NCBI GenBank assembly: GCA_024679065.1 | Contig: JAGIQG010000002.1 | Coordinates: 116,250,001 to 116,314,000, forward strand | DNA from: Sphyrna mokarran | Lineage: Eukaryota | Direction of reading: 5' to 3' | Length of the DNA stretch: 64,000 nucleotides | Part shown: one piece after another, positions 15,881 to 41,988 of the stretch | Numbering within the stretch: position 1 is the first letter of the stretch | Layout: each line of letters begins with the position of its first letter | The notes under the pieces: model-generated | Seen by the model: only the letters and a program-made list of their open reading frames with translations | Told to the model about the DNA's origin: nothing | Database searches by the model: none | Translations under genes and position numbers: made by a program

Positions 15881-16102
15881 CATGATGTAGAGATGCCGGC
15901 GTTGGAGTGGGGTAAACTCAGTAAAGTTTGACAACACCAATTTTAAATCCAACCGATTTATTTGTTAGTAAATCCACGAGCTTTCGGCCTTCATGGCCTC
16001 AGCATCTCATTCGCCTGATGAAGGCCACAAAGGCTGAAAGCTCGTGGATTTACTATCAAATAAATCGGTTGGATTTAAAATTGGTGTTGTCAAACTTTAC
16101 TG
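15881..16102 (-). mobile_element. Fold-back PLE-derived mini-element (family A), copy 1
   Basis: About 80-bp near-perfect inverted arms (15919-15998 / 16022-16102), unpaired 38-nt tail at left, TSD ACAGAAAATAGA (15869-15880 / 16103-16114). Confidence 0.9.
16009..16049 (+). ncRNA. Minimal type I hammerhead ribozyme motif
   Basis: attcgc-CTGATGA-A-ggcc acaaa ggct-GAAA-GCT-C-gtggat: stems I and II pair, stem III reduced to palindromic AGCT, NUH site CUC. Confidence 0.75.
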
Positions 16103-16705
16103 ACAGAAAATAGAGCCAACGTTTCAAGTCTGGATGATCCTTTGTCAGAGCTGAATACAATAGAAAATAAAAGAGATCTACATGGTAAAGAGGGGATTTG
16201 AAAATATGTCATAGACAAAACTGCAAAGGGAATGTAAATTCTGGTGATTATAGCTAAGAATGAAACCGTTAAAAGATTGGCATGTGTTAATTGCGTAACA
16301 AAGGTAAGCTGAGTGTTAAAGGACAACCTGAGACATGCAGCAGATGGCCCTGGGGAGGGGAGGGGGAGAGAGAGAGAGAGGCTCTCATTGTAGTCAAGGG
16401 GACCCTAACAGACACAGTTGAGAGCCATGTTAGCCGCAGTGAAAGGAAAACATATCAGCAGTATTTTGGAAAGTGTCATCAACAGATGCGATACATGTGA
16501 AGGAACTGAGGGAATGAGCTGCGAGTCCTTATAAGATGTGGGATGGGGAAAGGTGTAGTCAAGATAGCTGCGAGAGTCGATAGATGTAATGTGGTATATT
16601 GCCAGAAATGGAGACAGACAGGTCAAGGAAGGACAGAAATGGACCATATGAAGGTGATGGTGGGATAGAAACTGGAAGTAAAATTAATCAATTTTTCCAG
16701 GTCAA

Positions 16706-18155
16706 GCTAATGTTGTACCGTTGTTTAAAAAGGGTAGTAGGGATAACCCTGGCAATTATAGGCTGGTGAGTTTGACGTCAGTGGTAGGGAAGCTGTTGGA
16801 GGGGATTCTTAGAGATAGGATGTATAGGCACTTAGAGCGTTGCGATATGATTAGGGATACGCAGCATGGATTTATTAAGGGGAGGTCGTGCCTCACAAAT
16901 CTGGTAGAATTTTTTGAGGAGGTGACGAAAACGGTGGACGAAGGGCGAGCCGTTGATGTTGTCTATACGGATTTTAGTAAGGCGTTTGGCAAAGTCCCTC
17001 ATGAGAGGTTAGTTGAGAAGGTCAGGGCTCATGGGATACAAGGACAGGTAGTTAGATGGATAAGTAACTGGCTTAGTAATAGGAGACAGAGTAATAGTGG
17101 AAGGGTGTTTTTCTGGCTGGAGGTCGGTCACTAGTGGTGTGCCGCAGGGCTCGGTACTGGGACCTCTTCTATTTGTAATATATATAAATGACTTGGAAGA
17201 GGAAGTAAGTGGAGTGATCAGCAAGTTTGCAGACAATACAAAGATGGCTGGACTTGCGGATAGTGAGGAGCATTGTCAGGCGATGCAGCAGGACATAGGC
17301 TGGTAGCTTGGGCAGACGGATGGCAGATGGAATTTAATCCTGATAAATGCGGGATGATGCATTTCAGGAGAAAGAATGTAAGGGGGAGGTATATGATAAA
17401 GGGTAGACCTATTAAGCGTATAGAAACGCAGATGGACCTGGGTGTGCAGGTGAACAAGTCTCTGAATGTGGCAGAGCAGGTGGAGAAGATTGTGAAGAAA
17501 GCATATAGTATGCTAGCCTTTATAGGAAGAGGTATAGAGTACAAGAGCTGGCCTTTAATGTTGAAGTTGTATAAAACGTTGGTTAGACCTCATGTGGAAT
17601 ACTGCGTCCAGTTCTGGTCGCCTTACTACCGGAAGGACGTGGAGACTCTGGAGAGAGTGCAGAGGAGGTTTACCAGGATGCTGCCTGGTCTGGAAGGTCT
17701 GAGTTACGAGGAGAGGTTAGGCAAATTGGGACTGTTTTCCTTAGCAAGACGTAGACTTAGAGGAAATCTAAAAGAGGTGTACAAGATTATGAGGGGTATA
17801 GATAGAGTAAACAAGGTTAAGCTTTTTCCTAGGATGGACTCGAATAGCATGAGGGGTCACGGGCTTAGGGAGGCAGGTACTCTGGATTATTTAAGAAATA
17901 CTTAAATGGGCACATGAACAGAATGGGAATGGAGGGGTATAGAAAACTGATTTAAAATAGGGATCATGAGCCTTGGGAGTTCCTGGGAACTGTGTAAATA
18001 GATGATGATATTGATGTACTTGTTTTTATCCTAGAGGTGCTTTGGTCCACCTTGTTGTCTAACAAGGGGTGTACTCGCGATGGGTCGTGAGGATTTTTTT
18101 TTCGAGAGTACCCTAGTGCTTCACGTCGTTGGTGTACGCTTGATCTGGACCATTT
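16706..18155 (+). mobile_element. Young CR1/HER1 LINE (RT domain to long 3' UTR)
   Basis: [72 protein letters not shown]; few frameshifts; same subfamily as 46578-48210. Confidence 0.95.
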
Positions 18156-18157
18156 GA

Positions 18158-18477
18158 TGGGCAACACGACAGCTCAGTGACTATCGCTGTGCTGTGCAGA
18201 TACATGGGTTTGACCCTGTGTCTGTGGGAGTTTGTGCATTCTCCCCGTGTTTGCGTGGGTTTTCTCTGGGTGCTCCGGTTTCCTCCCACATCCCAAGGAT
18301 GTGCTCTTAGGCTAATTGGCAAAACAAATTCTCCCTAAATTGTCTCAAATTTGGTTTTTAATCCGTAGATCTATAAACATAGACAGGGATCACGGTTAGA
18401 GGTGGGAACATCGGGGTGGCAGCGCGGGCTCGTTGGGCCGAAGGGTCTGTTTCCCGTGCTGTTTTATTCTTTGTTCT
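18158..18477 (+). mobile_element. HE1-related SINE fused directly to the CR1 3' UTR
   Basis: GGGCAACACGACAGCTCAGTG head, TGTCTGTGGGAGTTTGTGCATTCTCCCCGTG...GGGTGCTCCGGTTTCCTCCCACA core, CR1-type tail. Confidence 0.8.
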
Positions 18478-19017
18478 TCTCGTCCATTTGCACCAACTCA
18501 ACATGATGCCACCAACAAACACATCTCCCACTCACTCCACTTGTTAGCATTTTCACAGGGATTATTCCCTCCGGGACACTTTTGCCCACTTGTCCATCAT
18601 ACCCAGCACCTTCCCATGCAATTACGGAAAGTGCAACACCTGCCCCTTTACCTCCTCCCTTCTCACCTTCCAAGGGCCTAAGCACTCTTCTCAGGTGAAA
18701 TGCTTTATGTGCACCTCTTTTAATCTGGTCTATTTTATTCATGACTCCTAATGTGGTCAATTATACGTCAGAGACCAAATGCAACTGGATGACTGCTTTG
18801 CAGAACATCTTTGGTCCATTCACAAACAGGATCCAGATCTTCCTGTCACTCATCATTTGAGCATGCCATTTTCTTCTCCTATCCACATGTCTTTGTGAAT
18901 TCCAAGGCAATCTGGAGGAACAGCACCTCATCTTCTGACTGGGCACTTTACAGCCTTCTGGACTGAACATTGAGTTCAACAACTTCAGAGCATGAACTCT
19001 CTTGTCCACTTTCACCA

Positions 19018-19045
19018 ACACACACACACACACACACACACACAC
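19018..19045. repeat. (AC)14 microsatellite
   Basis: Direct reading. Confidence 0.95.
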
Positions 19046-19159
19046 CTCTTGATGGCTGCTATCAGCACCCTTTTTAATCACATCCACCAGAATTTACACT
19101 CCCTTTTGTCTCTGACATATTTCTCAATTCCACCACCCACAACTTAGCAGCTCGTCCTA

Positions 19160-20589
19160 AAACCAAAAGAGAAAATACTGGAAAATCTCAGTTAGTCTGG
19201 CAGCATCTGTAAGGAGAGAAAAGAACTAACATTTTGAGTCCAGGTGACACTTTATCAAAATTAAAAGGCATAGAAAGTGGGAGATATTTACATTGCAGGG
19301 TGAGGGAATGGAAGATGTGTCATAGCCAGAAACCAGAGGAAATCACTGCGAATGGTTGTGCATAGAGAAAATAAAGGGTGTGAATGATCAAATGGTAGAA
19401 TAGCTGAAATCAGAGGGTAAGCTGTGTTAAATGAAGACGTGGGGTTGGCGGGGGAGGGGTGTGCGCTGGTTGGGAGAGAGGTAAAATTTGGAAAGTGAGA
19501 AAAGATAAGGAAAGGGGGATAAAGTGGAGGAAAGAATTGGGGGGAGAAGAAAAATGAAGAAAGGCAATAAAGAAATAAAAAGTAGAGAATAGTAAAAGAT
19601 TAAATAAATGAAAACAAAGGGGTCGAGATGGGGTAGAGCTGAACATCTGAAGTTGTTGAACTCGATGTTGAGACCAAGAGGCTGTAAAGTGCCTAGCCAG
19701 AAGATGAGATGCTGTCCCTCCAGTTTGCGATCAGATTCACTGGAACATTGCAGCAGGCCAAGGACAAACATATGGGCGTAGGAACAGGATTGTGTGTTAA
19801 AATGGCAAGCAACAGGAAAGTCAGGGTACTGATTGTGCACAGACTGAAGGTGCTCAGCAAAGCGATTGTCCAATCTACACATGGTTTCTGTGATCTGGAG
19901 GAGATCACATTGGGAGCAGCAAATGCAATAGACCAAATTGAAAGAGTTGCAAGTGAAATGCTGCTTAACCTGGAATGAGTGTTTTGGACCTTGGATAATA
20001 AGCATGAAAGAGGTAAAGAGGCAGATGTAACACCTTCTGTGATTGCATAGGAAAGTGCATTAATTGAAGGTGTAGGAGTGGACTAGGTTATCCCAGAGGG
20101 AACTGTTTCCACAGTCCACTGACAGCGGAGGTGGTGAGGGTCGTGGCGTGAGAGATGGACTGCATGCTGCTGAGAACCTGTCGACAATTAAAGATGGGAG
20201 TCCATGGTTGAGGAAAAAGAACCACATGTTAGAATCATCACTTTGGAAAGTGGCATCATTGGAACAAATGTGATGGAGGCAAAGGAGCTGAGAGAAAGGG
20301 ATGGAATGCTTCCAGGATGTAAAGTGCACGAAGCTGTAATCCAGATAGCTGTGGGTGTCAGTGAGGTTGTAATGGATATTGATAAATAGTCTATTGCTGG
20401 AAATGGAGACAAGCCAAGGAAGGGAAGTGTCTGAGATGGACCGGGTGAAGGCGATTGGAGGGGTGACAACTGGAAGAGAAGCTGATGTATTTTTTGAGGT
20501 CTGAACAAGAGCATGAAGTGCCACCGAAATAGTCATCGATGTTGTAGTAAGGGACCTGGTACCTGGAACAAGGAATGCTCCATATACAT
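19160..20589 (-). mobile_element. Penelope-like element (RT C-terminus + GIY-YIG endonuclease remnant) nested in the outer PLE
   Basis: ORF 19427..20005(-) FTCNSFNLVYCICCSQC...RFAEHL...LGTLQPLGLNIEF; ORF 20060..20536(-) HYNLTDTHSYLDYS...SIPFSQLLCLHHICS; TSD CTCGTCCTA (19151-19159 / 20590-20598). Confidence 0.88.
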
Positions 20590-22377: not shown

Positions 22378-22512
22378 CTGAAAACAAAATACTGCAGATG
22401 CCGCAATTCTGAAATAAAAACAGAAAATGTTGGAACAGTTCAGCAGGTCTGACAGCATCTGTTGGGGGAGGAACAGAGTTAATGTTTAGAGTCCGATATG
22501 ATTCTTCTCAGG
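22378..22512 (-). mobile_element. PLE family B terminal-repeat fragment
   Basis: AAAACAAAATACTGCAGATGC...CAGAAAATGTTGGAAC...CAGCAGGTCTGACAGCATCTG; flanks GACAGAACT / GACAGAATT look like a TSD. Confidence 0.75.
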
Positions 22513-24530: not shown

Positions 24531-24704
24531 CCCGCCCCCTTGCCTCTTTCCTATTTGAATGTAAACTTTTAAGAGCTGCCTTATACAATAGTATTGGGAA
24601 CCAGGCAGACAACAGGAAGTGACCATCATTTGTGATGCTGAAATGAAAACAGACCATGCTTTGAAATTCCCAGCTGGCATACGCTTCCAGGAAAATGGGT
24701 GAGT
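24531..24704 (+). promoter_or_regulatory. Candidate intronic enhancer / alternative promoter (GC box, ETS, ISRE-like, NF-kB-like, GAS motifs, then a splice donor)
   Basis: CCCGCCCC 24531, ACAGGAAGTG 24612, GAAATGAAAAC 24640, TGAAATTCCC 24662, TTCCAGGAA 24685, G|GTGAGT 24699. Confidence 0.35.
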
Positions 24705-26155: not shown

Positions 26156-26508
26156 TTTTTTATCTCACCCTAAAGATAACTCCTTACTCTGTTACGGTTC
26201 CTTGAGTACCAGCCCCCACTTTGGTACCTTACTTGTTCTTTAAGTATAAGCCTATACAAATTAGGGCATCAGATTTCAGCTGGATCTTGGCCTCAACTGA
26301 TATTTATCATTACGTGATCCCAACAGAAGCCAGCTAATTCTCCCCTGGCCTTCCTCTTCTTTCTCTCTCTGCCCCTATTCCATGCTAATCAAGGAGCACT
26401 GAGGACATTTGTACCAATGATGTACAGATGCCGGTGTTGGACATGGGTAAACACAGTAAGAAGTCTGACAACACCAGCTTTAAATCTAATCAATTTATTT
26501 GATAGTAA

Positions 26509-26548
26509 ACTCACAAGCTTTCGACCCTGTGGTCTTCGTCAGGTGAAT
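26509..26548 (-). ncRNA. Minimal type I hammerhead ribozyme motif (best-preserved copy)
   Basis: Minus strand reads attcac-CTGACGA-A-GACC acag GGTC-GAAA-GCT-T-gtgagt. Confidence 0.8.
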
Positions 26549-26598
26549 GAGGTGTTCTGGTCTCCAACTGCACACGTAACAGCACAGACTGTGCTGTT

Positions 26599-26638
26599 AT
26601 TCACCTGACGAAGACCATAGGGTTGAAAGCTTGTGAGT
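26599..26638 (+). ncRNA. Minimal type I hammerhead ribozyme motif
   Basis: attcac-CTGACGA-A-gacc atag ggtt-GAAA-GCT-T-gtgagt. Confidence 0.75.
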
Positions 26639-26841
26639 TTAATATCAAATAAATCGGTTGGATTTAAAGCTGGTGTTGTCAGACTTCTTGCATTTGTATC
26701 AACCCAGGCTTGCTGCGTTCATTGGCTGAGATCAGCAAACTTATATTCACAATAATTTGTGAATGGTGAGTCATGAATTAAAGTAAGCTCCATTATTTCT
26801 TTGATGTACAGCACATTGTATTGCTGTGTTTCCTTGCCTAA

Positions 26842-26922
26842 ATGATGTAGAGATGCTGGCATTGGACTGTAAACTCACAAATAAATCGGTTGGATTTAAA
26901 CCTGATGTTGTCAGACTTCTTA
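26842..26922 (-). mobile_element. Family A mini-element, copy 3 (81 bp, internally deleted)
   Basis: Same tail and right arm; perfect 18-bp direct repeat CTGTGTTTCCTTGCCTAA (26824-26841 / 26923-26940). Confidence 0.85.
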
Positions 26923-27912
26923 CTGTGTTTCCTTGCCTAACACACAATCTACCTCCAAATATCTACTGTAATTATTTTTCATATCAATTATTGCAGCTAC
27001 AGGGCACAAGAGCTTTGACCTAGTTGGCACTTAATAATTCAACCTCATTTACACATCACATATCCTAATTGGTCCGATATGATCTTGTATTAATCTCAGC
27101 ACTTTTGATGGTTTTCTTATTCGTGTCATTTTTGTTACAACAGATACTTTGATGTTGATTTATTTCTGATGTGATCAAAAATCTGTCACCAAAATATGGT
27201 TACCCGGAACTTCACCAAGTTAACATTTAGGGGCAAGTGTTTCCACTTGCTCCTATTGGCATTTGGATCTGGTATTATTGGCAGAAGAAACAAATTTTTT
27301 TTTCACTTGATCTGTGACCATGAGTTTTTCTTGCAAGTTTCTCTCATGGTTGGAGTTCAGTTGTCCACTGTTTAAAATAAAATCATAGGAACTTTCTTAA
27401 AATATTTATCATTTTGTAGAAACCTTCCATAAGGTGTCAAAAGTTGAACAAGAGCAAGCATTGGATATGTGCGTGAGACTGATGTATACGTAGAGAGAAG
27501 AAAGCAAAGGACAAGAACGGAGAATTGGTGAACGTAAAAGTCATTACATAAGAGACTGTTTTTAAAAATTTGTCCATTGGCAAATGGGAAAAACAACCAA
27601 TTAATGTTGTGTTCTTGAAAGTGGATAGAAATATATAAAATAAAGTTTTCTGTTTGACATTATTGTGTTCTTTTTCTGTTAATGTTTTGATATTTCTGAA
27701 AACTAGCTTTCACTTCTCACCTCCTTTAGTATTAATTTCCATTGGTGCACACTATGCTGACAAGAAGTAGAAGTTGCAATGGAGGAAACTACTTTCAAGG
27801 TAATTATGGTGGGTAACTACAGTGCAGACTGCAGTCAGAGGTCATCATGGAGGTAGAAATTGAGGCCAATTTCAAGTATATCAATAGGGCAAACTGCTTT
27901 CTTTGGGATAAT

Positions 27913-29101
27913 AGAACATAGAACATTACAGCACAGAACAGGCCCTTCGGCCTTCGATGTTGCGCTGACCAATATAAAAAGCAATGCCCCTCCAAAATAA
28001 ACCATTCCCTTCTCTTCCATATACTTATCAACTAACCTCTTAAACGCCACCAAACTTGGCGCATCTACAACCGCTGCAGGCAGGGCATTCCACTCCCGAA
28101 CCACCCTTTTGGTAAAGAACCTGCCTCTGATATCCGTCCTATAACTATCACCCCTTAATTTAAAGCTGTGTCCCCTCGTGCTAGCTTTTTCCATCCTAGG
28201 AAAAAGGCTATCACGGTCCACCCTATCTAAACCTCTAATCATCTTATATGTTTCGATTAGGTCCCCTCTTAGCCGCCTCCTTTCTAACGAAAACAACCTC
28301 AAATCCCTCAGCCTCTCTTCATAAGACCTGCCCTCCATTCCAGGCAACATCCTGGTAAACCTCCTCTGTAACCTCTCCAATGCCTCCACATCTTTCTTAT
28401 AATGCGGGGACCAGAACTGCACACAATACTCCAAGTGCGGCCGCACTAGAGTTTTGTACATTGCAACATGACGTTGCGGCTCCGAAATTCAATCCCCCTA
28501 CCAATAAAAGCTAAGACTCCATATGCCTTCCTAACAACCTTATCGACTGGACTGCCTACTTTCAGGGATCTATGCACATACACACCAAGATCCCTCTGTT
28601 CATCAACACTATTAAGAGCCCTACCATTAGCCCTATACTCTACACATTTATTGTTCCTGCCAAAGTGCATTACCTCACACTTTTCCACATTAAAATCCAT
28701 TTGCCACCTCTCGGCCCAGCTCTGCAACTTGTCCAAGTCCCTCTGCAAACTTTAACACCCCTCTTCACTATCTACCACTCCACCGACTTTAGTGTCATCT
28801 GCAAATTTACTAATCCATACTTCAATACCCTCATCCAGATCATTTATAAAAATTACAAACAGCAGGGGCCCCAAAACAGACCCCGAGGTACACCACTTGT
28901 CACCGAACTCCACGATGAATATCTCCCATCAACCACCACCCTCTGTCTTCTATCTGCTAGCCAATTCCTATCCAATTAGCTAAATCACCCTCTATCCCAT
29001 ACATCTGCATTTTCTGCAGAAGTCTTCCATGGGCCACCTTATCAAATGCCTTACTAAAGTCCATATATACCACATCAACCGCCTTACCCCCATCCACCTC
29101 T
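27913..29101 (-). mobile_element. Young CR1/HER1 LINE, 5'-truncated
   Basis: ORFs 27835..28461(-) and 28446..28748(-) are CR1 ORF2; (TAGAACA)n tail. Confidence 0.95.
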
Positions 29102-29791
29102 TTACCTGAATAATGTGACTAATCTGAATAACGTGAATCTTCCCTAGGGTTTTTGCAGTTGCAACCATCTAAGTGAGTAGTGAGCATTCCATCGCACATG
29201 ACTTGAGGCGTCATGAGCAGGGAGGCATAGTCCAATTACAGGTAGTGGAGAATGATTGGATGACAGCCTGTGCTCTCCTCTTATCAATGGTGGCATTATG
29301 ACATCTCCAGTTAACCTTTGAATGAGTCTTGATATTAATGGTACAATTGAAAGTTGGGGAGACAGCTGAGTTTTCAACACAGAGTTCAAGCTTTTTAATG
29401 TAACAGTAAGTTACCTTCAAGTTGTTGGTTGAACACTATACATCAGTTCTGTTTTAATTCCTTGACGAAAATAGCATGCTGCACTTGTACCTTTCAGCAT
29501 ATATTAGATTTTATTTATTTAAAAAAGAAACTTGAGCTCTTTAGACCTGTAGAGATGAAAAGTTAGTTAAAAAGTTAAATTTAAAAAGATAAGATTTTTT
29601 CTGATGCCCTCACCATGGCCACACTGATATCTTTTTCCATGTTTGCCGTAATCTACTTGGGAACTTAACCCCTTAACTTTATTGCTGTTTTCCAATCCAG
29701 ATCACTGCAGCAACAGAAACTGTATTTGTAACTGCTGTATCAAGTTATCTTCATCCCATGGAACACATTTGCAAACCTAGTGACTTCATTT

Positions 29792-31247
29792 TAGAACATA
29801 GAACATAGAACAATACAGCACAGAACAGGCCCTTCGGCCTTCGATGTTGTGCCGACCAAAATAAAAAGCAATGCCCTCCAAACTAAACCATTCCCTTCTC
29901 TTCCATATACTTATCAACTAACCTCTTAAACGCCACCAAACTTGGCGCATCTACAACAGCTGCAGGCAGGGCCATCCACTCCCTAATCACTCTTTGAGTA
30001 AAGAACCTACCTCTGATATCCGTCCTATAACTCATACCCCTTAATTTAAAGCTGTGTCCCCTCGTGCTAGCTTTCTCCATCCTAGGAAAAAGGCTATCAC
30101 TGTCCACCCTATCTAAACCTATAATCATCTTATATGCTTCAATAAGATCCCCTCTTAGCCGCCTCCTTTCTAACGAAAACAACCTCAAATCCTTCAACCT
30201 CTCTTCATAGGACCTGCCCTCCATACCAGGCAACATCCTAGTAAAACTCCTCTGTACCCTCTCCAATGCCTCCACATCTTTCTTATAATGTGGCGACCAG
30301 AACTGCACACAATACTACAAGTGCGGCCGCACTAGAGTTTTGTACAGCTGCAACATGATGCTGCGGCTCCTAAATTCAATCCCCCTACCAATAAAAGCTA
30401 AGACTCCATAAGCCTTCTTAACAACTTTATCCACTTGACTGCCTACTTTCAGGGATCTATTGACACATACACCAAGATCCTTCTGTTACTCAACACTATT
30501 AAGAGCCCTACCATTAGCCCTATACTCTACACATTTATTGTTCCTGCCAAAGTGCATTACCTCACACTTTTCCACATTAAACTCCATTTGCCACCTCTCG
30601 GCCCAGCTCTGCAACTTGTCCAAGTATCTCTGCAAACTATAACACCCCTCTTCACTATCTACCACTCCACCGACTTTAGTGTCATCTGCAAATTTACTAA
30701 TCCATCCTTCAATACCTCATCCAGATCATTTATAAAAATTACAAACAGCAGGGGCCCCAAAACAGACCCCTGAGGCACACCACTCATCACCGAACTCCAG
30801 GATGAATATCTCCCATCAACCACCACCCTCTGTCTTCTATCTGCCAGCCAATTCCTAATCCAATTAGCTAAATCACCCTCTATTCCACACATCGGCATTT
30901 TCTGTAGAAGTCTTCCATGGGCCACCTTATCAAAAGCCTTACTAAAGTCCATATATACTACATCAACCGCCTTACCCCCATCCACCTCTCTGGTCACTTT
31001 CTCAAAAAACTCAAGGAGGTTAGTTAGGCATGACCTACCCTTCACGAAACCATGCTGACTATCCCCAATCAATTCATTTCTCTCTAAATAACTATAAATC
31101 CTATCCCTAATAATTCTCTCCAATACATTGCCCACAACAGAAGTAAGACTCACTGGCCTATAATTCCCTGGAAGGTCTCTCTTCCCCTTCTTAAACAATG
31201 GGACCACATTCGCTATCCTCCAGTCCTCCGGAACCACACCCGTAACC
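29792..31247 (-). mobile_element. Young CR1/HER1 LINE, sister copy of 27913-29101
   Basis: [17 protein letters not shown]...[13 protein letters not shown]; nucleotide sequence very similar to the upstream copy. Confidence 0.95.
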
Positions 31248-31376
31248 AACGAGTGTTTTGTTTTTGAAGTCACAAATGCACTGTGCCATAGAGCTGAGGC
31301 CATTAGCCAGAGACCTGAAGTGCAGCTGGGAGGTATGGAGTTATACCACATGTATATACCACCTTGCTGTGACTTA

Positions 31377-31566
31377 AATCTGAAAAGCAAATAGAGAATC
31401 CTGGAAAAATCAATAGGTTCGGCAGCATCTGTAGGGAGAGAAAACAGAGTTAACGTTTTGAGTCTGTATGACTTCTTCATCTGAAGAAATGTTAGCTTTG
31501 TTTCCTCTCCTTATTAGGTGCTGCTGGCTTGCTGGGTTTTTCCAGGATTTTCTGTTTTTGTTTTGA
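31377..31566. mobile_element. Fold-back PLE family B mini-element
   Basis: AATCCTGGAAAAATC...GGCAGCATCTGTAGGGAGAGAAAACAGAGTTAAC is inverted against GTTAGCTTTGTTTCCTCTCC...TTTTTCCAGGATTTT. Confidence 0.75.
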
Positions 31567-32784
31567 GGTATGATATTGAGAGCAAAGGCTTTGGCATTTG
31601 AGTAATCTTGAACAAGAATTGTGTGGGGAAGGTAAGCCTCTTTGTAATAATTAAACAATGCTTTATGTTGCAGACAGTAAATTGGTTTAAACGTAGTTTA
31701 ATTCTTGAGTGCCTTGATACTTTAGTATGACATTTGAGATTGATTATGGATGGTATAATTAAATTTTAAACTACCACTTTTGGATACATGATTAGTAGAT
31801 TGTAATAGCAGGTTGTATATAGTCAGTAAGCCCATTTGAGATTTTTGGTGAACCACTTCACATACTCACACAAAGCCCCTATTGGTAATGACCTCTGTTT
31901 CTTGCACTGACTGACCTGGTATTGGGATCAGATGGATGTGTTGAATGGTGGTTTGAGAGGGAAAAGAAGGCTGACTACAGAGAATGGTTCATTAAGACGG
32001 TTCGATAGAATAAATTATATTGCTGGGTTTGATCAGGCTGCTATTATAGAAATACAGCAAAATTGAAACATCAAGGGAAGAAGAACAAGACAAAACCAGA
32101 ATCTAGACAAGATAAATTAGCAAGAAAGACAATTTTGAAGAAGTCTGAACAGATTGAAAAAGCCTTTCCAGATGTGAACTTTGATGGGACAGTAGTTAGA
32201 GGATGGAAATGCTATGGAATGAATATGGCTTTTATATTATACCAGTAAATATTTCCATATTTTTATATAATATGAATACTTCATGGATTTCTCGGTTACC
32301 ACCCATTTAACTTTCTTTGTTTCATCACGTCCCTTTATTTATATCAAATCAAATTTCCTTCTCTTTCCCTCCTATTCTTGCCTTGAACTCCAATCATCAT
32401 CTTTTCTTCCTGTTTTTCTGCTCCCCTCATTGTCTCTTCCCATCACTGTGTCTTTTGATGCCCATTCCAGATTATTCATGTTCATGACATCTGCAGGTCA
32501 CTGAACTCCTTGCTATTTCTGCCTTCTATCTAGTGAATCTCCCCCATTGCGAAGCAACAGTAATCACTTACTCTCCGCATATTAGTTCTAACAGCTGTCC
32601 AAACTTTCTGAGATCCTGAATGAACTTACTAGGTCACTAGTCATTTCTCCCAGAGCTCTTGTTTGATTCCATTCACCTTCTGTAAACTTCAGCTTATCAC
32701 ACAGTCTGTTTCCTACACTTTTCATGAAAGTCTCGTTCACAAATTTTCCCCTAAATTCACTAAACCTCTGTTGCCTTTGCTACC

Positions 32785-32992
32785 CATGATGTGGAGATTC
32801 CAGTGTTGGATTGGGCTAAATACAGTAAGAAGTGTCTCAGCACCAGGTTAAAGTCCAACAGGTCTATTTGGTAGCAAATGCCACTAGCTTTCGGAGATGA
32901 CCTGATGAAGGAGTAGCACTCTGAAATCTAGTGGCGTTTGCTACCAAATAAACCTTTGGATTTTAACTTGGTGTTGTGAGACTTCTCACTGT
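32785..32992 (-). mobile_element. Family A fold-back mini-element, copy 4
   Basis: Inverted arms; + strand CTGATGA-A-GGAGT agc ACTCT-GAAA at 32902-32926 with AGCT mutated to ATCT; TSD CTTTGCTACC (32775-32784 / 32993-33002). Confidence 0.88.
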
Positions 32993-34107
32993 CTTTGCTA
33001 CCTTCCAAAGTCTCAGATTTGTGTTTGAATGCTCCAAGTCTTCTTCCTCATCATATCCGGCTTTACAAGTCTTTCTCTCTCTTGAACTTTGGCTTGTATC
33101 TCTTGTTATCTCCTCTCTCCTTTCAGTAGTAGGATTGCTTTCCCTCACCAAAACCATAAATCTTGATCGCTCCCCTTTGTATGGAAGAGGAATAGCCATT
33201 TTATTTTTAAACAGAGGGAAAAAGAGAGGAGGATCTATTAGATATTAAAAATATTGTATTTGTCCATACTTCCAGTCAGCTAGGCGTGGCTGTAATTATT
33301 TTAACACAAGTTTATCTCGGCAGTTCTAATTATAAACATTGGCACAGGAATTTATAATACATAAACATGAGGAGAATTTTCTCCTGCTTCGTATGTACCC
33401 TATTCTCTAACTCTATTTTACTTGCCAAATGTAGCACTAGATTAGAGAATTACAGTGAAACATTTCCATCAGGTATCGTATATTTCAATGCAGAATGCAT
33501 CTTTTTATTTAATTCTATCTTGGAAGATTAGTGGAGAAATCCTCTAAACCGTTGTTCAAATGTATAAAGTGACCTCTAATATTGGCACAGAAAATTGAAT
33601 CAAATTTTGCTTCCTGTATCTGAACAATTTAATTCATTTAAGACAATATTTGAAAGTTACCTTGCTCCTTCCTCATCTATGACATATCCCCATCATTATA
33701 GACCCATCTCAACCAAAAAAAATTGGAATGCCATCGGTAAGAAATTTAGTAGCTGTATTGCCTATTGAGAGCTGAAGTGGTACCTTTAACAACTCAAGTT
33801 GTTTTCATTGACTGCTCTGCTCTGAAGGTGATGTTTAGGCTGAAAGCAGTCATGTAGCTTATCAATGTATTACTGTATGCTATTTCTCCAAAGTCCTGAC
33901 TGAAGCAGTGGTGAACATTCAAGTTCTGTTTCAAACCAAAGAAGTTGCAGAGAAACATTGATTGCCCTTTAATTAATTGGTTGTGAAACCGTATTGAATC
34001 CCAGGTGGCATAATAAAATGCTATAAAATACAAAGGCTGGAATTCTTCCAAAAAATTCTAATTGTTGAATTCTGTGAAGACTGTAGTAATTTGTGCTGTT
34101 TCTTTTT

Positions 34108-34898
34108 CAGCGGGAGATCAGAGAAGAATCTCCCATGCTCTGTACGCTGCAGAAGTCACCAGTGTAAATATCATTAAAAGCTAGAGGGTGGGACCTATAG
34201 CAGTTGGAGGAGCTGAAATCAGTGCCCTGAGTGGGACGCTGCGCATGCGGTGATCTGTCAGTGCCAAAATCGGCACATGTGCAGTGGTCCCGCACTAATA
34301 ACCTCCCGACTGCTGGCCAGTTCAATCACTGGCCAGCCCCACAATGCTGCCCCTTCTCCCCCCAACCCCGCCAAATACACACACATATGGCCTGAATGCT
34401 GTCCTTCCTCCAACCCCTTGGCACTGTCTCATACTTGATGAGCAGTGCCAATGTACCCCCTGGATATTGGCACTTGGCCCCCCCTGCACTGCCCAAGGGG
34501 TAGAGGCTGGCACTGCCAAGATGCCAATGCCCAGAGAACACCCACCCCTGCTGTCTGACTCTCTGGAACGGTGGCCTTGATTGCCCCTTCACTCCCGCAG
34601 GGTCAGGCTGCTAGTTCCCGAAAAGTGGGGAGCGATTGTAATTCCTGCTGGAATGAAATTCTCTGGCAGTGTGGGGGTGCAGAGACCTCAAACCTGGGCC
34701 TGCTAATTGCATTTAAATTAGATTAAAAATAATATCAAAATTAGTTCTGCACCTCCTCGCCAATTTCTGGTGCGGAGTGAACGCCACAGGAAATCCGGCG
34801 TTGGGTGACACTATCGTGGTGGGAACACATGCATATATCCCGCACAGCCTCCTGTATTTAAAAACAAACGAGTGCAGCAGGATGGGAGAATCACCCCC
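34108..34898. mobile_element. GC-rich non-autonomous DNA transposon fragment
   Basis: GC/CpG-rich patch ending in GGGAGAATCACCCCC, a terminus type related to the MITE ends at 8189 and 38288; no credible ORF. Confidence 0.55.
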
Positions 34899-35152
34899 AA
34901 TGTCTTTTATAACTGTATTTAACAAAAACACTGCTTTCATCCATAAAATCAGCGACCATACGTTGGAAGTGCTTTAAGGAACCTCCACCAATACAGTTTG
35001 AGCTTTCAAACTGTGAAAATGAACTTTGTGCTTTGTTTTAACTGGGTAGATGAATTACCTTTGTGTACATAATGTATCATGGGTAGTTTTCATCTTTCCC
35101 TTGTGAAATTACAACATATAATGTGCACTTCACTGGCATATATTCCAGCATG

Positions 35153-35378
35153 TGGAGATGCTGGCGTTGGACTGGGACAACACAGTAAGAAGTCTCACAA
35201 TATTCGGTTAAAGTCCAACAGGTTTATTTGGTAGCAAACGCCGCTAGCTTTCGGAGCACTGCTCCTTTGTTAAGTAAGTGGGAGTTCTGTTCGCAAACAA
35301 TACATTTAAAGATACAAACTCAATTTACAGAATACTGATTGGAATGCAAATCTTTACAGCTAATCAAGTCTTAAACAA
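35153..35378 (-). mobile_element. Family A PLE 3' fragment, copy 5 (single arm, not folded back)
   Basis: Tail, one arm, and internal sequence matching 60730-60930; perfect TSD ATATTCCAGCATG (35140-35152 / 35379-35391). Confidence 0.88.
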
Positions 35379-36534
35379 ATATTCCAGCATGCAGCAAACT
35401 TACATGTGATTGAGGTACAAACGACAGTAATTTTAAAAACCTTTTCTTTTCAACTTGGTTGATTTTTGAAATTTTCTTGCGTCATCTGAGAGGGACTGAT
35501 GTGCAGGGTTTCTTTGAATTACTTCAAGCCGTTAGGTTGGTTAAAGATCATTAGAAACTATGGAAAGGCTATCAACAATGACTACTTTAGAAAGAGGTAG
35601 GCAAAATACAGCAAAGTGGAAAATGAGAGTTTGATTTGGGAAAGAAAGGGAACAAAGTATTTTGATTGATATGAAGGGCTATAAACATAAATAATTGTCA
35701 ATACAGGTTTCAGCGAGGGAAGAAGCAATTTAATCCAATATTAAACGTATTTTATAAAATTATATTTACTTGATATTACAGATATATCTGTGTCTCCTCT
35801 ACCCTTTCAGGATTAGTAAGATATTTCCCCTATGCTAAGTATTATTTCAGTAAATTAGTTATATTGCAGCAATAGCACTGAAGCATTCAAGATGTTTCAT
35901 ACAATGTGTAAGTAGTAGCAACATGGAAGCTCTAAAGTTTGCATTTGTCAAGCACAGTACAGGATAGGATGTTATATGGAAAATACATTAAGTTTGTAAA
36001 GGTTTGAGCTTTGTTTTTTTTTGTACATTGTCAAGCTATTTCAAAATACTGTGTTAAATCACATTGGTTTTTAAAGTAATGTGGCTTAGACGTAGTGTAG
36101 CTCAAGTTATCAATGCATTGAAATGCAGCATTTTTTTTACATATAGTGCTGGATTTGCACTTTCACATCTAACAGTAGATGTTTTGTTCTGATTGGGTTT
36201 TACCTGTGTGGGCTGGTTGAGCACGATCTGTACTCTGCTTGTTACGCATAACTGAAAGAACATGCTGTTTGATTTGATTACCCAATTGCTGGGACTTATG
36301 GCCATGTACCTGGCATCACAGCAGTACTAAAATTAATTAATCCACGCATGATGTCACTCAGTTGTGTGGGAAGCAGAATGACTTTTAGGACTGACCATCA
36401 GAAGTAAATGACAATTGCCTAGCCATGCATGATAGCAACTTGAAATGGTTTGTTTAAACTGTTTTTAACGTTTTTGCGCTATTTTGCCTTTCCAGGATAA
36501 TTTGAGGCATTTTTCAGGTCTGAAAGTGGAGGGC

Positions 36535-37470
36535 TTGATTTGATTTATTGTTGTCACATGTTTTAACATACAGTGAAATGTATTGTTTCTTGTGCGCTAT
36601 TCAGGCAAAGCATACCATTCATAGAGAAAGAAACAAGAGAGTGCAGAATGTTGTATTACAGTCATAAGCTAGAGTATAGAAAAAGAGCAACTTAATGTAA
36701 GTCCATTCAAAAGTCTGACAGCAGCAGAGAAGAAGCTATTTTTAGTTGGTTGGTAGGTGACCTCAGACCCAAAGGAAGAAGATGGAAGAGAGAATGTCCA
36801 GGGTCGCGTGAAGTTCTTAATTATGCTGGCTGCCTTGCCTAGAAAGAATCAACGGATGGAATGCTGGTTTACACGATGGATTCGACTACATTCACAACCT
36901 TTTGTAGTTCCTTGCCGTCTTTGGCGGAGCAGAAACCATACCAAGCTGTGATACAATCAGAAAGAATAGAAAGAACACTCTCTATGGTGCGTCTGTAAAA
37001 GTCAGTGAGAGTCGCAACTGACATTCCAAATTTCCTTAGTGTTCTGAGAAAGTAGAGGTGTTGTTGGGCTTTCTTAACTATAGTGTTGGCACGGGGGGGA
37101 ATCAGGACATATTGTTGGTGATCTGGACACCTAAAAACATGAAGCTCTCAACCCTTTCTACTTCATCCTTGTTGATGTAGACAAATACATTTTCTTTTCT
37201 ACATTTGCTGAAGTCGATGATAATCTTCATTTTGTTGACATTGAGGGAGAGATTATTGTTGCCACACCAGTTCCCTAGATACTCTATCTCATTATCGTAC
37301 TCTGTCTCATCATTGTTTGAGATCCAATCCATTATGTTGCTGTCGTCAGCAAACTTCAAAATTGAATTGGAGGGGAGTTTGGCCACATGGTCATTGGTGT
37401 ATAAGGAGTGTATTAGGAGGCTGAGAACACAGCACCAGAGTTGAGGATGATCGTGGAGGAGATGTAATTG
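36535..37470 (-). mobile_element. Rex1/Babar-type LINE, 5'-truncated
   Basis: ORF 37102..37506(-) CVLSLLIHSLYTND...ILKFADD...ISNNDETEY...WCGNNNLSLNVNK...ERVESFMFLGVQIT; (TTGAT)n tail. Confidence 0.85.
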
Positions 37471-37821
37471 CCTATCCTTAGTGGGCTTTGGCCATTTGTC
37501 AGACACTCATATGGTAACTTGGTCACAAAAAGATTGTCAAAAATGTTGTGATAATCAATTTTCTTATGAAAGTATTGAAACCAGTACACCATGGACTCAG
37601 GACTGGAAGCAGCTAGTTGCACACTTCCCTCGTGGTCAGACCAAACCCACGACAGCCCATTGCTACTTATGACATCATTCGTGCATGCTCGTACTCGCTA
37701 CAGACATCAGCACGTGCATTTAAATAGGAAGATGCTTATTATAACACTCTATAACAACAGTGAACAACAATCTGATCAGGATTGCTATTGTCCCATAAGA
37801 TAACTTTGATGCAATGTAATA

Positions 37822-38062
37822 GAAGCAAAATATTGTGGATGCTAGAAATCTGGGGGGAAAAGAACAGGAAATGCTAGAAAGATTCGGTAAGTCTGGCAGC
37901 ATCTGTGGAGAGAGAAACCGAATTAAGATTTCATGCCGAATGTGGCTCTTCATCGAAGCACCTCTTCTTCGAAAGAAGAGTCACGTTGATTCAAAATGTT
38001 AACTTGGTTTTTCTCTCCACAGATACTGCCAGACCTGCTAAGTTTTTGCAACACTTACTATA
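37822..38062. mobile_element. Fold-back PLE family B mini-element
   Basis: GTCTGGCAGCATCTGTGGAGAGAGAAACC is inverted against GGTTTTTCTCTCCACAGATACTGCCAGAC; decayed hammerhead-like cores in the centre. Confidence 0.8.
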
Positions 38063-38287
38063 TTCATTCAATTCAAACTGAAATGGTTCGTGCCCAACTT
38101 ATAAGATTGCTGATGTGGCCAGTCTTATGGTATGTGGAATTGTACAAATCCCAATGTGTATGTTGATTGGTGAAGGTCAGCTTGCGGTAAATGGCAGTGG
38201 GAAACCTATATTTGCGATTTCTCAACTAGTGGATCATGGGTGGAGTGTATTAAGGTGTGCGTGCAGCTTCAGAATGATCACAAACGG

Positions 38288-38494
38288 TGGAAGGATTCTC
38301 CGGCCTTACTGTAGCATCTTTCTCATGGCAGGAAGCAACTTGACATTTTCCGGCTGTAGGAACTTCTGGTCCTGCTGTTATCAATGAGATTTCCTATTGG
38401 CTGCTCCTCATGCCACTGAGAAACCCACGGTATTAGTATGCCATCAAAGGGACCAGAAGATTCTGCCAACGTGAACAGGCAGTGAATTCTGGTC
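38288..38494. mobile_element. MITE-like element related to 8189-8374
   Basis: GGATTCTCCGGCC start and GGGACCAGAAGATTCTGCC segment resemble 8290-8310. Confidence 0.5.
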
Positions 38495-38809
38495 GTCATC
38501 TACATATTGGAAATACGAACAGAGTAGCATTCTACAGCTTATAACATCAAAAATGCGTTTCTTACGGAAAACGATGAAAAGCCTACCTTCACAAATATGC
38601 AATGGTAATTTCCACTAACAGGATGCTGTGTCTGTCCGAAAAGATGTTCTGTCTTCCACACAATGTAGCAATACTATATAAATTTCAGTGTTGTTGTGAT
38701 ACCAAGTAGAGAGATTGTAGGTCCTGGTGATTGACTGACTGAACCAAACAGCACATTCATTAACTTGTAATAAGTAGATGACAGACTACATTAAATCAGT
38801 CCTTGCTTA

Positions 38810-39210
38810 TTAAATCTGAAACAAGATGTGGAAGTATAGTTGTGAGAAGGATGCAAAGATGCTTTAAGGGGATTTGGAGTAGCTAAGTGGTCAAAATTTG
38901 GCACATGGAATTCAATGTAGAGAAATGTGAGGTTATCCACTTCAGTAGGAAGAACAGAAAGATTAGGACAGGTGATCAAGTGTTTCTTATATAAGAGGCT
39001 GGGGAGTGTTGAACTTCAATGGGTCTTGGGTATCTTTCTTCTTTAGTTACTGAAAGCTAACATGCAGATGCAACAAGCAATTCAGAAAGCAAATGGTTTG
39101 ATGCCTTTATTGCAAGATGATTTGAGTAAAGAGGGTTAGATCTTGACGTGACCATACGTGGAGTATTGTGTGCAGCTTTGGCCTCCTTACTTCAAGAAAG
39201 ATTTATATGT
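38810..39210 (+). mobile_element. Old CR1 fragment
   Basis: WHMEFNVEKCEVIHF-like and YVEYCVQLWPPYFKKD-like translations. Confidence 0.75.
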
Positions 39211-40149
39211 TGAACAATTCTAAATGCGCTAATAGCTACACTCAATGAACAATAAGTCAAGCTGGTAACATGGTTCATTCACACTTCTTAGAAGCAATAT
39301 ATATTCATCGATAGCAATCAGTTATCTCCAAATAAAGGAAATATGTTCAAGCCTTGTGCCTTTTCGGAAGCAGCTGAGAGCCAGGGGAGCTTTTAGTTTT
39401 CCATGATAGTGACGTGCCTATCAGAGTTGACTCTGAAATAATAGTGGTCATTTGAAATTTGTACGTTTTTTTTCCAATGAATGCAAGACAAAAAGCTTTG
39501 GCTTCATGTCTTTCTTTTTAGCAACTTTATTTATATTTTAGGACTGTGCCATTGAAAAGTGAGTTGGAGCACTATTCAGTTGTCATGGAGTGTGAACTAT
39601 GTGCCCTAAGCTTCATGTCAAATTTGAGCTTTGCTATTATTTTGAGAGGATGGATGCACAGAATGGATCCCAAGTGCTTGTTTTGGAGGATGATTGTTTG
39701 GGGCCAATGTTGGATTGTATAGTTATTTTGTAGATACTTAAGATCAGGTTACTGGCTTGCTTTTCACAGACATCTCCAGTATGTGGAAAACAAAAAAAAG
39801 AAGAAATAACTTGTGGGAGAAGTAAACTTTGAGCATAATTTCTGTTGTCTGTGGTATTGAGGGCGATGGTATTGTGTTACTTGAAAGAATAATTCCTTTT
39901 AATTACTTTCCACATGTGGAATGCGTGTTTTTTTTCAATGAAATTATAGAAATGTTGTGACTTTAAAACACTCTTTATTGAAATGCACTTTCGTTCAAGA
40001 TCATTCAAACATTATTCTATGTTTGAGGAATTTCTATCTTCTTGCTTTATTTGAAATTTGACTTGAAATTCCTGCAAAGTTTCAAACTTTCTCACTTTGT
40101 GATCTGTGCAGCTGATTTGGTAACCAGTAACAACCTGAACATCCATAGG

Positions 40150-40477
40150 ATAGAGTATCATAGTATTATACATTGCAGAAGGAGGCCATTTGGCCCATTG
40201 AGTCTGCACTGACCACAATCCCACCTAGGCCCAATCACCATAACACTCTACATTTACCCTAGCTAGCTCCACTAATGCTAAAGGGCAATTTAGAATGGCC
40301 AATTTTTCTAACCTGCACATCTTTGTACTGTGGGAGAAAACTGGAGCACCCGGAGAAAACCCACACTAGACACGGGGAGAACGTGCAAACTGCACACAGA
40401 CAGTGACCCAAGTCAGAAATCTAACCTGGGTCTCTGGCACTGTGAAGTAGCAGTGCTAACTACTGTGCCACTGTGCC
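40150..40477 (-). mobile_element. HE1-type SINE, full length
   Basis: Tail, GGAGCACCCGGAGAAAACCCAC core, head ...GCAGTGCTAACTACTGTGCCACTGTGCC. Confidence 0.9.
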
Positions 40478-41866
40478 AGTTTTTTCACTTTGTCCGTGAA
40501 GTGCACTTTGGTCTTTAGGCACTATATTTTTGGATATAAAAAAAAACTTAAATTTGTCCAAGATCCAAGTGAAAATGTAGGGTGATGGGTTGATGCATGA
40601 AGGGACTAGCCTGGGATAAAGGGAAACCATGATACAGTAATTGTATGTGGCCTTGCATAAAATAGGCTTGACGGGTTGAATAGCCTTCCGCAGTGTTCTA
40701 CTTTCTGCAATGAGCTTCATTATATATACCTTTTTAAGCTGGTGTCAGAATTTTTCCTACATTATTCTTTTATGGCACTGCTCACTTGATATTTTATGGT
40801 TTTTTTATGGTATTGTAGGGGCACATAATAATTTTTAGTAACACTGTTTCTAATGACATAAAATAGCAATGACCCATGATCTGAACAATACACTGTGAAT
40901 GTTTTGGTCTTCTGTGTTTCTCTAAATTTTAGGAATAAGTACCTATTAACAAACAGCAAACTGACCAAAGCGAAGTATTGGCCACAAGACCTGGCAGTCA
41001 ATGAAATGTTTTTAGTGGAAAATGTAATCCAACAGTACCATCTTTGTTTTATCTTACAAAGAAAATAATTAAAGTCCGGGTACAGGTCCTTGAGAACTGA
41101 GATGCCTAAAATGAGCTATGCAATGCCTGAGCCTTTTCATTCCTGTTTAGAATGATACCAGAGCAGAGGAAATTTGGTTTCACACTAGATTCTTGTAGTT
41201 TTGGGAATGCTCACTGAGGCAGGCTCTCCAAGAGCTAATCAATAGATAGTTTTGTTCACTTGTTTCCAGTCTCCATTTTCATTCTAAGCTTGGACGTTAC
41301 AGTTTCCACTGATGGTTCTTCGACCGTTCACATTGCTGAATCATAGCTAATTGCAATTACATTTTGGTTCTCTAATATTTTAAGTAAACTGCTTGTCATC
41401 TTTGCATTATACATTGAAGAGCTTGCCAGAGCCTTTTGTATGTAAGGCAATTTTGGATCAGTTTCGAGATCATTTTACTTCACATGTGGATAAAGATTTT
41501 TTAATAGGTGAAATTTCTCATAACATTGCTCACATAGTTGGATATTCTGCTGTGTCAGTGACTGGGTGAATGGAAATGCTTCATTAGGCAGGATGTGGGA
41601 GAACTCTAGGCTTATGAGTAGAGTTGGCAACCACTGTTCTAATCTAGGACTTTGGAACTGATAGAAATGAAGCATTTTTTTCAAAGTTTACCTGGTTGTG
41701 GCTTCTTCAAATCTGTTGCAATATGTAACTTTTAAAAATTAGTTTTACCTGCAAAGAAGAATGTCATACTTTGTTACAGATTATAGTTTCTACTCAAGCA
41801 GTTGTCAGAAAGAAAACAACTTTTTTTGTTGTTTAAATTTATTTGGTCTTTGAACTCTTCTGGAAA

Positions 41867-41988
41867 CCATGATGTTGAGATAGCGGTGTTGGATTAAGGT
41901 GGGCAGAGTAAGAAGTCTGAGAGCACTCCAAAAGCTTGTGATACCAAATAAACCTGTTGGACTTTAACCTGGTGCTGTGAGACTTCTT
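41867..41988 (-). mobile_element. Family A mini-element, copy 6 (internally deleted)
   Basis: Tail CATGATGTTGAGATAGCGGTGTTGG plus right arm; TSD ACTCTTCTGGAAA / ACTTTTCTGGAAA. Confidence 0.8.

Follow-up and report, generated by a model that had tools for sequence, protein, structure and literature searches.

Insertions of EN+ Penelope-like elements (PLEs) are among the closest described counterparts of the sequences analyzed here. In two papers (Arkhipova et al. 2013, PMC3846280; Craig et al. 2021, PMC8557442), such insertions have a partial tandem pLTR-ORF-pLTR structure and heavy 5′ truncation, and show a head-to-head inverted 5′-truncated copy, a 30–40 bp tail at one end and a TSD. The pairing of an inverted end with a one-sided tail is thus already published, both there and in a study of the Anolis carolinensis Poseidon element PAc (Frangieh et al. 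2024, PMC11167929). In vitro, the Anolis PLE protein nicks both strands and extends them, starting at two sites that bracket the tail, with no strand difference reported in start-site use. PLEs also carry minimal type I hammerheads with an extra nucleotide that separates position 9 from 10.1, a G10.1-C11.1 pair, a palindromic 15.2-16.2 without stem III and a highly variable stem II; these occur as opposite-strand pairs 100–700 bp apart and do not cleave as monomers (Cervera and de la Pena 2014, PMC4209133). Non-LTR retrozymes, which are non-coding, derive from PLE pLTRs and bear a type I hammerhead, are head-to-tail tandem arrays with one ribozyme per unit (Li et al. 2026, bioRxiv 10.64898/2026.07.22.740005).

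The window, a 64,000-nt stretch of Sphyrna mokarran DNA, contains small inserts of this kind. They are, with high confidence, the 5′-truncated 3′ ends of a Neptune-type PLE, each hairpin likely having been built once, at insertion, by two RT primings. A preliminary description had listed copies 1 to 6 below; its positions are correct and the copies are mutually related, whereas copy 7 had been overlooked.

15881..16101: copy 1, tailed arm (element on minus strand) head-to-head with tail-less arm (element on plus), junction at hammerhead stem II; TSD 15868-15880 / 16102-16114, 13 bp
16009..16049, plus: putative minimal type I hammerhead within copy 1; its core is 16015-16043, with cleavage predicted to follow 16043 and a G10.1.U11.1 wobble
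26418..26690: copy 2, tailed arm (minus) of ~176 nt and tail-less arm (plus) of ~100 nt; TSD 26406-26417 / 26691-26702, 12 bp with 1 mismatch
26509..26548, minus: putative hammerhead of copy 2, core 26542-26515, the sole motif in the window with G10.1-C11.1 intact
26599..26638, plus: putative hammerhead of copy 2, core 26605-26632, G.U at 10.1-11.1
26842..26922: copy 3, the tail alone (36 nt, minus) adjoining a 56-nt tail-less arm (plus), without hammerhead; TSD 26824-26841 / 26923-26940, 18 bp, 8 of them matched by the element as well
32785..32992: copy 4, older subfamily, two arms meeting at stem II; TSD 32775-32784 / 32993-33002, 10 bp
32902-32930, plus: decayed hammerhead of copy 4
35150..35378, minus: copy 5, single tailed arm, hammerhead core decayed; TSD 35140-35152 / 35379-35391, 13 bp
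41867..41992: copy 6, tailed arm of ~58 nt (minus) and tail-less arm of ~71 nt (plus); TSD 41858-41866 / 41993-42001, 9 bp if exact, 13 bp if one mismatch is allowed
60730..61497, minus: copy 7, ~770-nt tail-less 3′ end

Each of the six copies has its own TSD, measured at 9–18 bp with a mismatch in copy 2 and optionally in copy 6, whereas the same test applied to random position pairs scored 1 in 300. Separate TSDs, together with junctions that are single in the genome at all four copies tested, bear out the earlier claim that each copy inserted independently. The long inverted arms reported for three copies are likewise present (copy 1, 82 nt, 95%; copy 2, 91 nt, 93%; copy 4, ~75–90 nt), and the apparent loop of copy 2 is parental 3′ UTR belonging to its ~176-nt tailed arm. 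An inverted arm was sought in copy 5 and none was found, making it one-armed. Copy 7, for which no TSD was found, contains frameshifted remnants of a CX4CxxC linker and a GIY-YIG endonuclease. The shared unpaired tail is real, at ~37 nt, but it is the 3′ end of the element read on the minus strand rather than a leader.

Walking outward from such copies in genome DNA led to the parent, a 3.02-kb Neptune-type PLE with an RT, a CX4CxxC linker and a GIY-YIG domain. Its repeat (pLTR) runs from the hammerhead motif through AATAAA and the ~37-nt tail to the ATG of the ORF encoding RT and GIY-YIG, and the window copies correspond to its 3′ end, with the same motif, AATAAA and a tail terminating on that ATG. 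At locus L007 the GIY-YIG C terminus is encoded upstream of the motif. As in EN+ PLEs, there is a single ORF with the RT followed by a C-terminal GIY-YIG: natural ORF pieces match RVT_1 (E 2.6e-7 and 9.1e-10) and GIY-YIG (E 1.5e-4 and 2.5e-4, both slightly below the Pfam cut-off), with one 713-aa ORF in L188 holding both the RVT_1 match at 9.1e-10 and the GIY-YIG match at 2.5e-4 (21.7 bits; cut-off 22.6). None of 20 long loci has the whole ORF unbroken. In 18 of these 20 an upstream pLTR/tail runs into the same ORF start, giving the partial tandem pLTR arrangement, and the repeat unit measures 3025–3027 nt in L182 and L188. A CX2-5CxxC linker before GIY-YIG and a CCHH motif place the parent among Neptune-type elements, an assignment made by motifs; Craig et al. 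(2021) describe Neptune clade PLEs as having a C-terminal GIY-YIG with this linker. An NCBIfam search added nothing specific. Microsatellite targeting, in contrast to the Neptune clade, is not evident in the listed TSDs, as judged by inspection. PAc belongs to a different clade by its linker motif. Although its two end positions also bracket the tail and its hammerhead also lies upstream of the tail, both lie inside the ORF start in PAc, whereas here both are upstream and the ATG is where the tail ends.

By motif and covariation across 127 distinct genomic copies, the parental pLTR appears to carry a Penelope-type minimal type I hammerhead, as proposed earlier. The extra nucleotide, the G10.1-C11.1 pair, the palindromic 15.2-16.2, the missing stem III, the variable stem II and the opposite-strand pairs all recur, but stem I is 6 bp and stem II 4–5 bp, as against 4–5 and 7–8 bp in the Schistosoma motifs (PMC4209133). 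In the same 127 copies the reported retention of stem pairing despite variation proves to be real covariation, and position 17 is C in 51, T in 47, A in 29 and G in none, in keeping with the NUH rule. The core nonetheless decays, with G8>A in 14 and G12>A in 19 of 127, and 9 of 43 motifs in an unselected sample are fully canonical. A loose scan of both strands of the window (CTGANGA-N10-30-GAAA-N2-4-TH) gave four matches, all within these copies. The motif had been called intact on the plus strand of copy 1 and on both strands of copy 2; this holds fully for the minus strand of copy 2, whereas the plus-strand motifs of both copies have G.U at 10.1-11.1, a CpG-type change. It is decayed in copies 4 and 5 and absent from copy 3, as had been broadly noted. 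An Rfam scan (E<=1) returned two unrelated weak matches and no hammerhead family; the minimal motif lacks stem III. When co-folded in ViennaRNA, the motif had a minimum other than the AGCT-swapped dimer, which is neutral with regard to the dimer. There was no clear peak of 5′ ends at the cleavage site (columns 65–68; 0 of 37 in a first sample and 2 of 39 in a second).

The preliminary description had left two options, a coding-free retrozyme- or MITE-like element and a recurrent product of extreme truncation plus inversion, and had proposed that shared or unique loop junctions would separate them. All four junctions tested (copies 1, 2, 3 and 4; 24–26-mers, 1 mismatch allowed) have a single match in 2.77 Gb, where an arm 25-mer has 292. 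We also sampled 1.46 Mb in seven arbitrarily chosen stretches of large contigs (864 kb, then 600 kb of new DNA), in which inserts occur at ~65 per Mb. Most consist of only the pLTR end, and in this and in their density they differ from the EN+ insertions described in the cited papers. The 40 unselected two-armed inserts form a continuum from 91 to 3547 bp that grades into coding, near-full-length copies. One-armed inserts are also common, since the pairing rule left 36 of 82 end-hits in the first sample unpaired. Extrapolating from the 40 two-armed inserts gives roughly 75,000 hairpins per genome.

A non-autonomous, coding-free family copied as hairpin RNA by a Penelope protein would fit the small, non-coding, TSD-bounded nature of most inserts (25 of the 40 are 91–290 bp) and the derivation of animal retrozymes from PLE pLTRs (bioRxiv 10.64898/2026.07.22.740005). 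Against it stand the four unique junctions and the size continuum; neither the uniform length nor the common internal junction of a MITE was found, and folding predicts a ribozyme buried within the hairpin. The inserts are dispersed head-to-head singletons, with same-strand neighbors confined to two pairs under 1 kb among 82 end-hits (864 kb) and one under 1.5 kb among 54 (600 kb), and neither sample contained the head-to-tail short arrays expected of retrozymes. We therefore regard this explanation as very improbable; for the window copies it is already largely refuted, though rare propagating subfamilies elsewhere would lie outside the sample's reach. Truncation plus inversion is the option that stands. 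An even more remote suggestion is that copy 2 and similar two-hammerhead inserts are functional self-locking RNA switches used by the host. Copy 2 does have the core motif on both strands, and if the antisense arm is left out, folding predicts its stems (0.9 for the earliest length, 0.5–0.65 at full length). However, the head-to-head geometry means that transcription from either side meets the antisense arm first, and therefore the ribozyme is predicted never to fold: the modeled pairing probability of stems I and II is 0.000 at every transcript length tested, forcing the hammerhead costs 21–55 kcal/mol while it emerges and 38–63 at full length, and no second state is predicted. Moreover, stem III is absent and such motifs are uncleaved as monomers (PMC4209133), the plus-strand motif of copy 2 has lost G10.1-C11.1, and the arrangement is common (eight in 864 kb). 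Two-hammerhead inserts are a routine by-product.

The two-armed inserts are head-to-head, have TSDs of ~12–13 bp and a locus-specific junction, and carry the tail on exactly one end. Among 47 TSD-bounded two-armed inserts, 44 have one tail and three are ambiguous; none has zero or two. The first set contributed 35 of 38 pairs with one tailed and one short end and three with a tail and an ambiguous end, and the 600 kb of new DNA reproduced the pattern in 15 of 17 pairs (two ambiguous) and in all nine with a TSD. The 3′ ends are bimodal (model columns 125–136 and 158–164), and the tail is 32–45 nt in 30 of 31 measured. An inverted 5′-truncated copy with a 30–40 bp one-end tail is the form known from EN+ PLEs, but where PMC3846280 and PMC8557442 call the tail 'optional' or 'often at one end', here it is at exactly one end in every resolvable two-armed insert. 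Of the 27 clean pairs in the unselected set, 15 have the tail-less arm extending further 5′ and 11 the tailed arm, and thus neither is simply copied from the other. In three cases the tail-less arm exceeds its partner by about 480–730 nt, and in copy 3 (36 nt) and at C1215:153466 (33 nt) the tailed arm is the tail alone. Junctions look enriched inside the hammerhead, where 18 of 40 arms at risk end within its 37 nt compared with 11 of 51 and 3 of 22 for the intervals that flank it. They are also near-symmetric (within 15 nt) in 12 of 27 pairs against four expected, and at 17 of 26 loci the partner arm ranks within the closest 5% of all hammerhead variants. An arm-length correlation (rho 0.72, n=14) was not reproduced (rho 0.24, p 0.2, n=14).

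Self-priming from junction palindromes was proposed by Arkhipova et al. (PMC3846280). A single priming of the same parent could suffice if the tail-primed cDNA snapped back and copied itself to ~37 nt short of the primer, with arms made unequal by later deletions at the center; a variant would self-prime on antisense RNA, as proposed in the same paper. Such a route accounts for the single tail, for the same variant in both arms and for the near-symmetric junctions, the last of which count against two primings. However, it predicts that the tailed arm always reaches further 5′, contrary to the majority of pairs and to the three large excesses, although a later deletion across the palindrome center could shorten either arm. 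Tailed arms of precisely tail length exist, and in vitro the RT starts at either boundary of the tail (PMC11167929). Snap-back priming is consequently unlikely, though it is the most serious competitor. Together, the one-tail rule, the fact that either arm can be the longer and the apparent junction enrichment point to two offset primings per insertion.

In the two-priming mechanism, which we infer solely from genomic end products, the endonuclease would nick both target strands ~13 bp apart. One 3′ end would prime at the outer start site, at the tail end, and the other at an inner site ~37 nt upstream, with one source copy probably supplying the RNA for both. The two cDNAs would stop early, and microhomology of a few bases, frequently within the self-complementary stems of the hammerhead, would join them and so give the common 120–290 bp size. 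LINE-1 twin priming likewise uses two target-primed starts to give an inversion joined by microhomology inside a TSD. Its arms copy non-overlapping parts of the RNA, whereas here they usually copy the same part, and therefore strand displacement or two RNAs would be needed. Because start sites were used without strand difference in PMC11167929, that paper does not itself explain a tail at exactly one end. A stricter version, in which PLEs insert by obligately asymmetric double priming, one RNP using both nicked strands with one start ATG-proximal and one ~37 nt inside, and the hammerhead stems are the preferred place for cDNA to stall and anneal, is a tentative proposal that we rate below even chances. 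The hammerhead was probably selected in active source elements and is probably a passenger in the stumps, where it decays and where the antisense arm would keep it unfolded in any read-through transcript. Microhomology between target and template at the short end averages 1.26 nt (31 loci) against 0.38 for swapped targets, a null that ignores chance TSD extension (estimated at ~0.8), and is only a weak lead.

Splice-like signals are also present: the copy-2 subfamily has a donor-like GTGAGT after the cleavage site, and in the tail a branch-like CTTAC marks the start and CCCCAG immediately precedes the ATG. We rejected the idea of an intron as unsupported, since most members of the copy-1 subfamily have GC in place of the GT, several long copies have lost the AG, and GT..AG occurs at none of the 15 joints listed for four runs (contigs; 11 more are not listed).

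The inserts therefore represent a known pattern and not a new self-copying RNA element, as both the architecture and the ribozyme motif are published. Within the open-access literature, searches turned up no account of these elements in sharks and none of twin priming in PLEs. The exactly-one-tail rule, the greater reach of either arm and the apparent hammerhead junction enrichment go beyond the cited papers. The inserts are of value as a very extensive natural archive of a transposition mechanism for which competing models exist, and the one-tail rule and the either-arm-longer pattern discriminate self-priming (PMC3846280) from a model with two primings based on the start sites used in vitro (PMC11167929). 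If asymmetric double priming is true, the ribozyme would act at the DNA level by shaping the insert, and the ~75,000 ready-made hairpins would be a source of dsRNA; if transcribed, they could matter for RNA editing or small-RNA silencing.

The six small inserts of the preliminary description lie where claimed and are mutually related. Each is flanked by its own direct repeat of 9-18 bp (target-site duplication, TSD), a test passed by 1 of 300 random position pairs. Inverted arms are present in copies 1, 2 and 4, and copy 5 is a single arm. A loose scan of both strands returned four hammerhead motifs, all within these copies; Rfam gave no hammerhead match in the window. A seventh copy had been overlooked. 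The inserts and other elements are:

15881: copy 1
26417: copy 2
26842: copy 3
32785: copy 4
35153: copy 5
41867: copy 6
60730-61497: copy 7, with frameshifted linker and endonuclease remnants
27897-31250: LINE-type reverse transcriptase (RT) fragment, tandem duplication of ~1886 bp, 89-96% alike
16705-18089 (opposite strand): further copy of the LINE-type fragment
46657-48179: further copy of the LINE-type fragment
52707-53090: open reading frame (ORF) piece matching an integrase zinc-binding domain (PF17921, E 3e-5, below cut-off), likely an LTR-element remnant

The LINE-type fragment matches RVT_1 at 30659-31510 (E 8e-26). Copy 1 is inserted in a member of D10, a further dispersed short repeat family found in the window at 15824-15878, 19167, 22419, 31389 and 37863.

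A genome search with the copy-2 arm returned 2798 candidates, 40 of which were scored, and among 30 retrieved loci the shared sequence continued past the arm for about 100 to 670 nt. Read from hammerhead through AATAAA to tail, the longest extension codes for the end of a GIY-YIG endonuclease, and two further outward steps of DNA walking reached the RT and the ORF start. Natural ORF pieces match RVT_1, and GIY-YIG is matched just below the Pfam cut-off; none of 20 long loci holds a whole unbroken ORF. By its motifs, the parent is a Neptune-type Penelope-like element (PLE) with a unit of about 3.02 kb and a terminal repeat (pLTR) made up of the hammerhead motif, AATAAA and a ~37-nt tail. In 18 of the 20 long loci, an upstream pLTR copy ends with the tail and is followed directly by the ATG of the ORF. 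The window copies are very probably independent stumps of this element. Judging by its repeats, the host is probably a cartilaginous fish.

Several features of the parent loci deserve mention. The tail end coincides exactly with the ORF ATG (for example, L078:860-1018), and AATAAA lies inside the pLTR, ~15 nt past the point of predicted cleavage; tandem copies therefore carry this signal within their 5' UTR as well. In 5 of the 20 long loci (listed as L068, L074, L088, L091 and L079, and also as L177, L182, L183, L190 and L191), the upstream partial copy starts inside the hammerhead (model columns 42-56); thus the 5' end of the tandem, too, is often inside the ribozyme. Loci L069 and L070, on different contigs, are 99.97% alike over 3.1 kb, and L064 and L065 also group among such near-identical loci. 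An inversion junction common to L065, L066 and L067, whose flanks differ, may mean that a long inverted copy was re-mobilised or that one microhomology junction arose repeatedly.

The hairpins had been proposed as a possible self-propagating family, for which shared junctions would be expected. Instead, the junction-spanning patterns of copies 1-4 each matched once in 2.77 Gb with one mismatch allowed, and an arm pattern of equal size matched 292 times. An unselected 1.464 Mb, comprising the window and seven 200-kb stretches, gave 82 + 54 end-profile matches; these made up 23 + 17 inserts with two arms, 91-3547 bp in size, and there were no head-to-tail short arrays. In copy 2, the 50-nt 'loop' consists of minus-strand 3' UTR from the parent. 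Given the unique junctions, the size range, the lack of short arrays and the origin of this loop, the hairpins are truncation-inversion events, separate for each. Rough extrapolation puts the genome totals at ~180,000 inserts and ~75,000 hairpins.

The inserts obey a strict one-tail rule. Their 3' ends fall into two groups ~37 nt apart, tailed and short. In a first set of 60 head-to-head pairs, drawn from unselected DNA and 88 search-selected loci, tail+short accounted for 46, tail+ambiguous for 9, short+ambiguous for 1 and tail+tail for 4; these last are internal pLTRs continuing into the ORF, with far ends short in two, ambiguous in one and not found in one. The 38 TSD-bearing pairs comprised 35 tail+short and 3 tail+ambiguous. 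New DNA replicated the rule in 15 of 17 pairs, the other 2 being ambiguous, and in 9/9 with a TSD. TSDs are mostly 12-13 bp. Either arm can be the longer: the tail-less one in 30 of 49 mapped pairs (one of the 30 being a failed mapping), the tailed one in 18, with one tie; and the tail-less in 15, the tailed in 11, of 27 clean pairs (40 unselected minus 13 with ambiguous ends or unmapped gaps). An arm-length correlation in the first sample failed to replicate in the second. The hammerhead variants of the two arms match closely (partner within the nearest 5% in 17/26 loci), and the arms stop ≤15 nt apart in 12/27 pairs versus 4 expected.

A plausible route starts with nicks in the two target strands, ~13 bp apart, from which each strand is primed at a different tail boundary on RNA from one source; the two cDNAs would terminate early and join via microhomology. 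We consider the two-priming step on its own fairly likely. Its component steps are supported by PMC11167929, which describes nicking and extension of both strands and two start sites flanking the tail. Start-site use there showed no strand difference; a dimer is predicted, and the hammerhead is protein-assisted and dispensable for insertion. The main rival is snap-back self-priming, in which a single cDNA folds back and copies itself, followed by central deletion; self-priming on an antisense template is proposed in PMC3846280.

As claimed initially, stem pairing is maintained across variants. Motifs were parsed with a pattern tolerating two changes per motif, so heavily decayed ones are under-counted; 152 of 169 matches parsed, 145 were retained and 127 were distinct. 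Stem II pairs 3 and 4 are paired in 94% versus 57% shuffled and 76% versus 36%, and stem I pair 2, with an A-U to G-C swap, in 91% versus 72% (each 0/1000 shuffles, figures that are not probabilities because shuffling ignores relatedness). The NUH rule also holds, G being absent at position 17 in all 127. The core decays in the copies, mainly at CpG: its letters are kept in 22 of 43 unselected motifs, and 9 are fully canonical. The proposed self-locking switch is not predicted: the antisense arm is always transcribed first in hairpin copies, and for copies 1 and 2, folding at four transcript lengths gave stems I and II a predicted probability of 0.000 each time. Neither splicing nor cleavage was visible in the RNA data, which were contigs only. 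The motif fits the minimal PLE hammerhead of PMC4209133, of which the monomer did not cleave and the dimer cleaved weakly, and opposite-strand pairs were already reported. Across all hammerhead copies, stem-loop II varies far more than its flanks, with dozens of loop lengths and sequences in subfamilies whose ORFs are ~95% alike; the same text, by Cervera and de la Pena, remarks on such variability in other animals.

Of 40 arms at risk, 18 end inside the 37 nt of the hammerhead, versus 11/51 downstream and 3/22 upstream. This excess is a lead towards a junction hot spot and only that, because paired arms are non-independent and very short arms are under-detected.

An inverted end with a one-sided tail and TSD has already been described (PMC3846280 and PMC8557442), and retrozymes appear as PLE derivatives in bioRxiv 10.64898/2026.07.22.740005. 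The open-access literature yielded no paper that deals with this PLE family, and none on twin priming in such elements. The features worth pursuing are how strictly inserts keep to one tail and whether the ribozyme is a hot spot for junctions.
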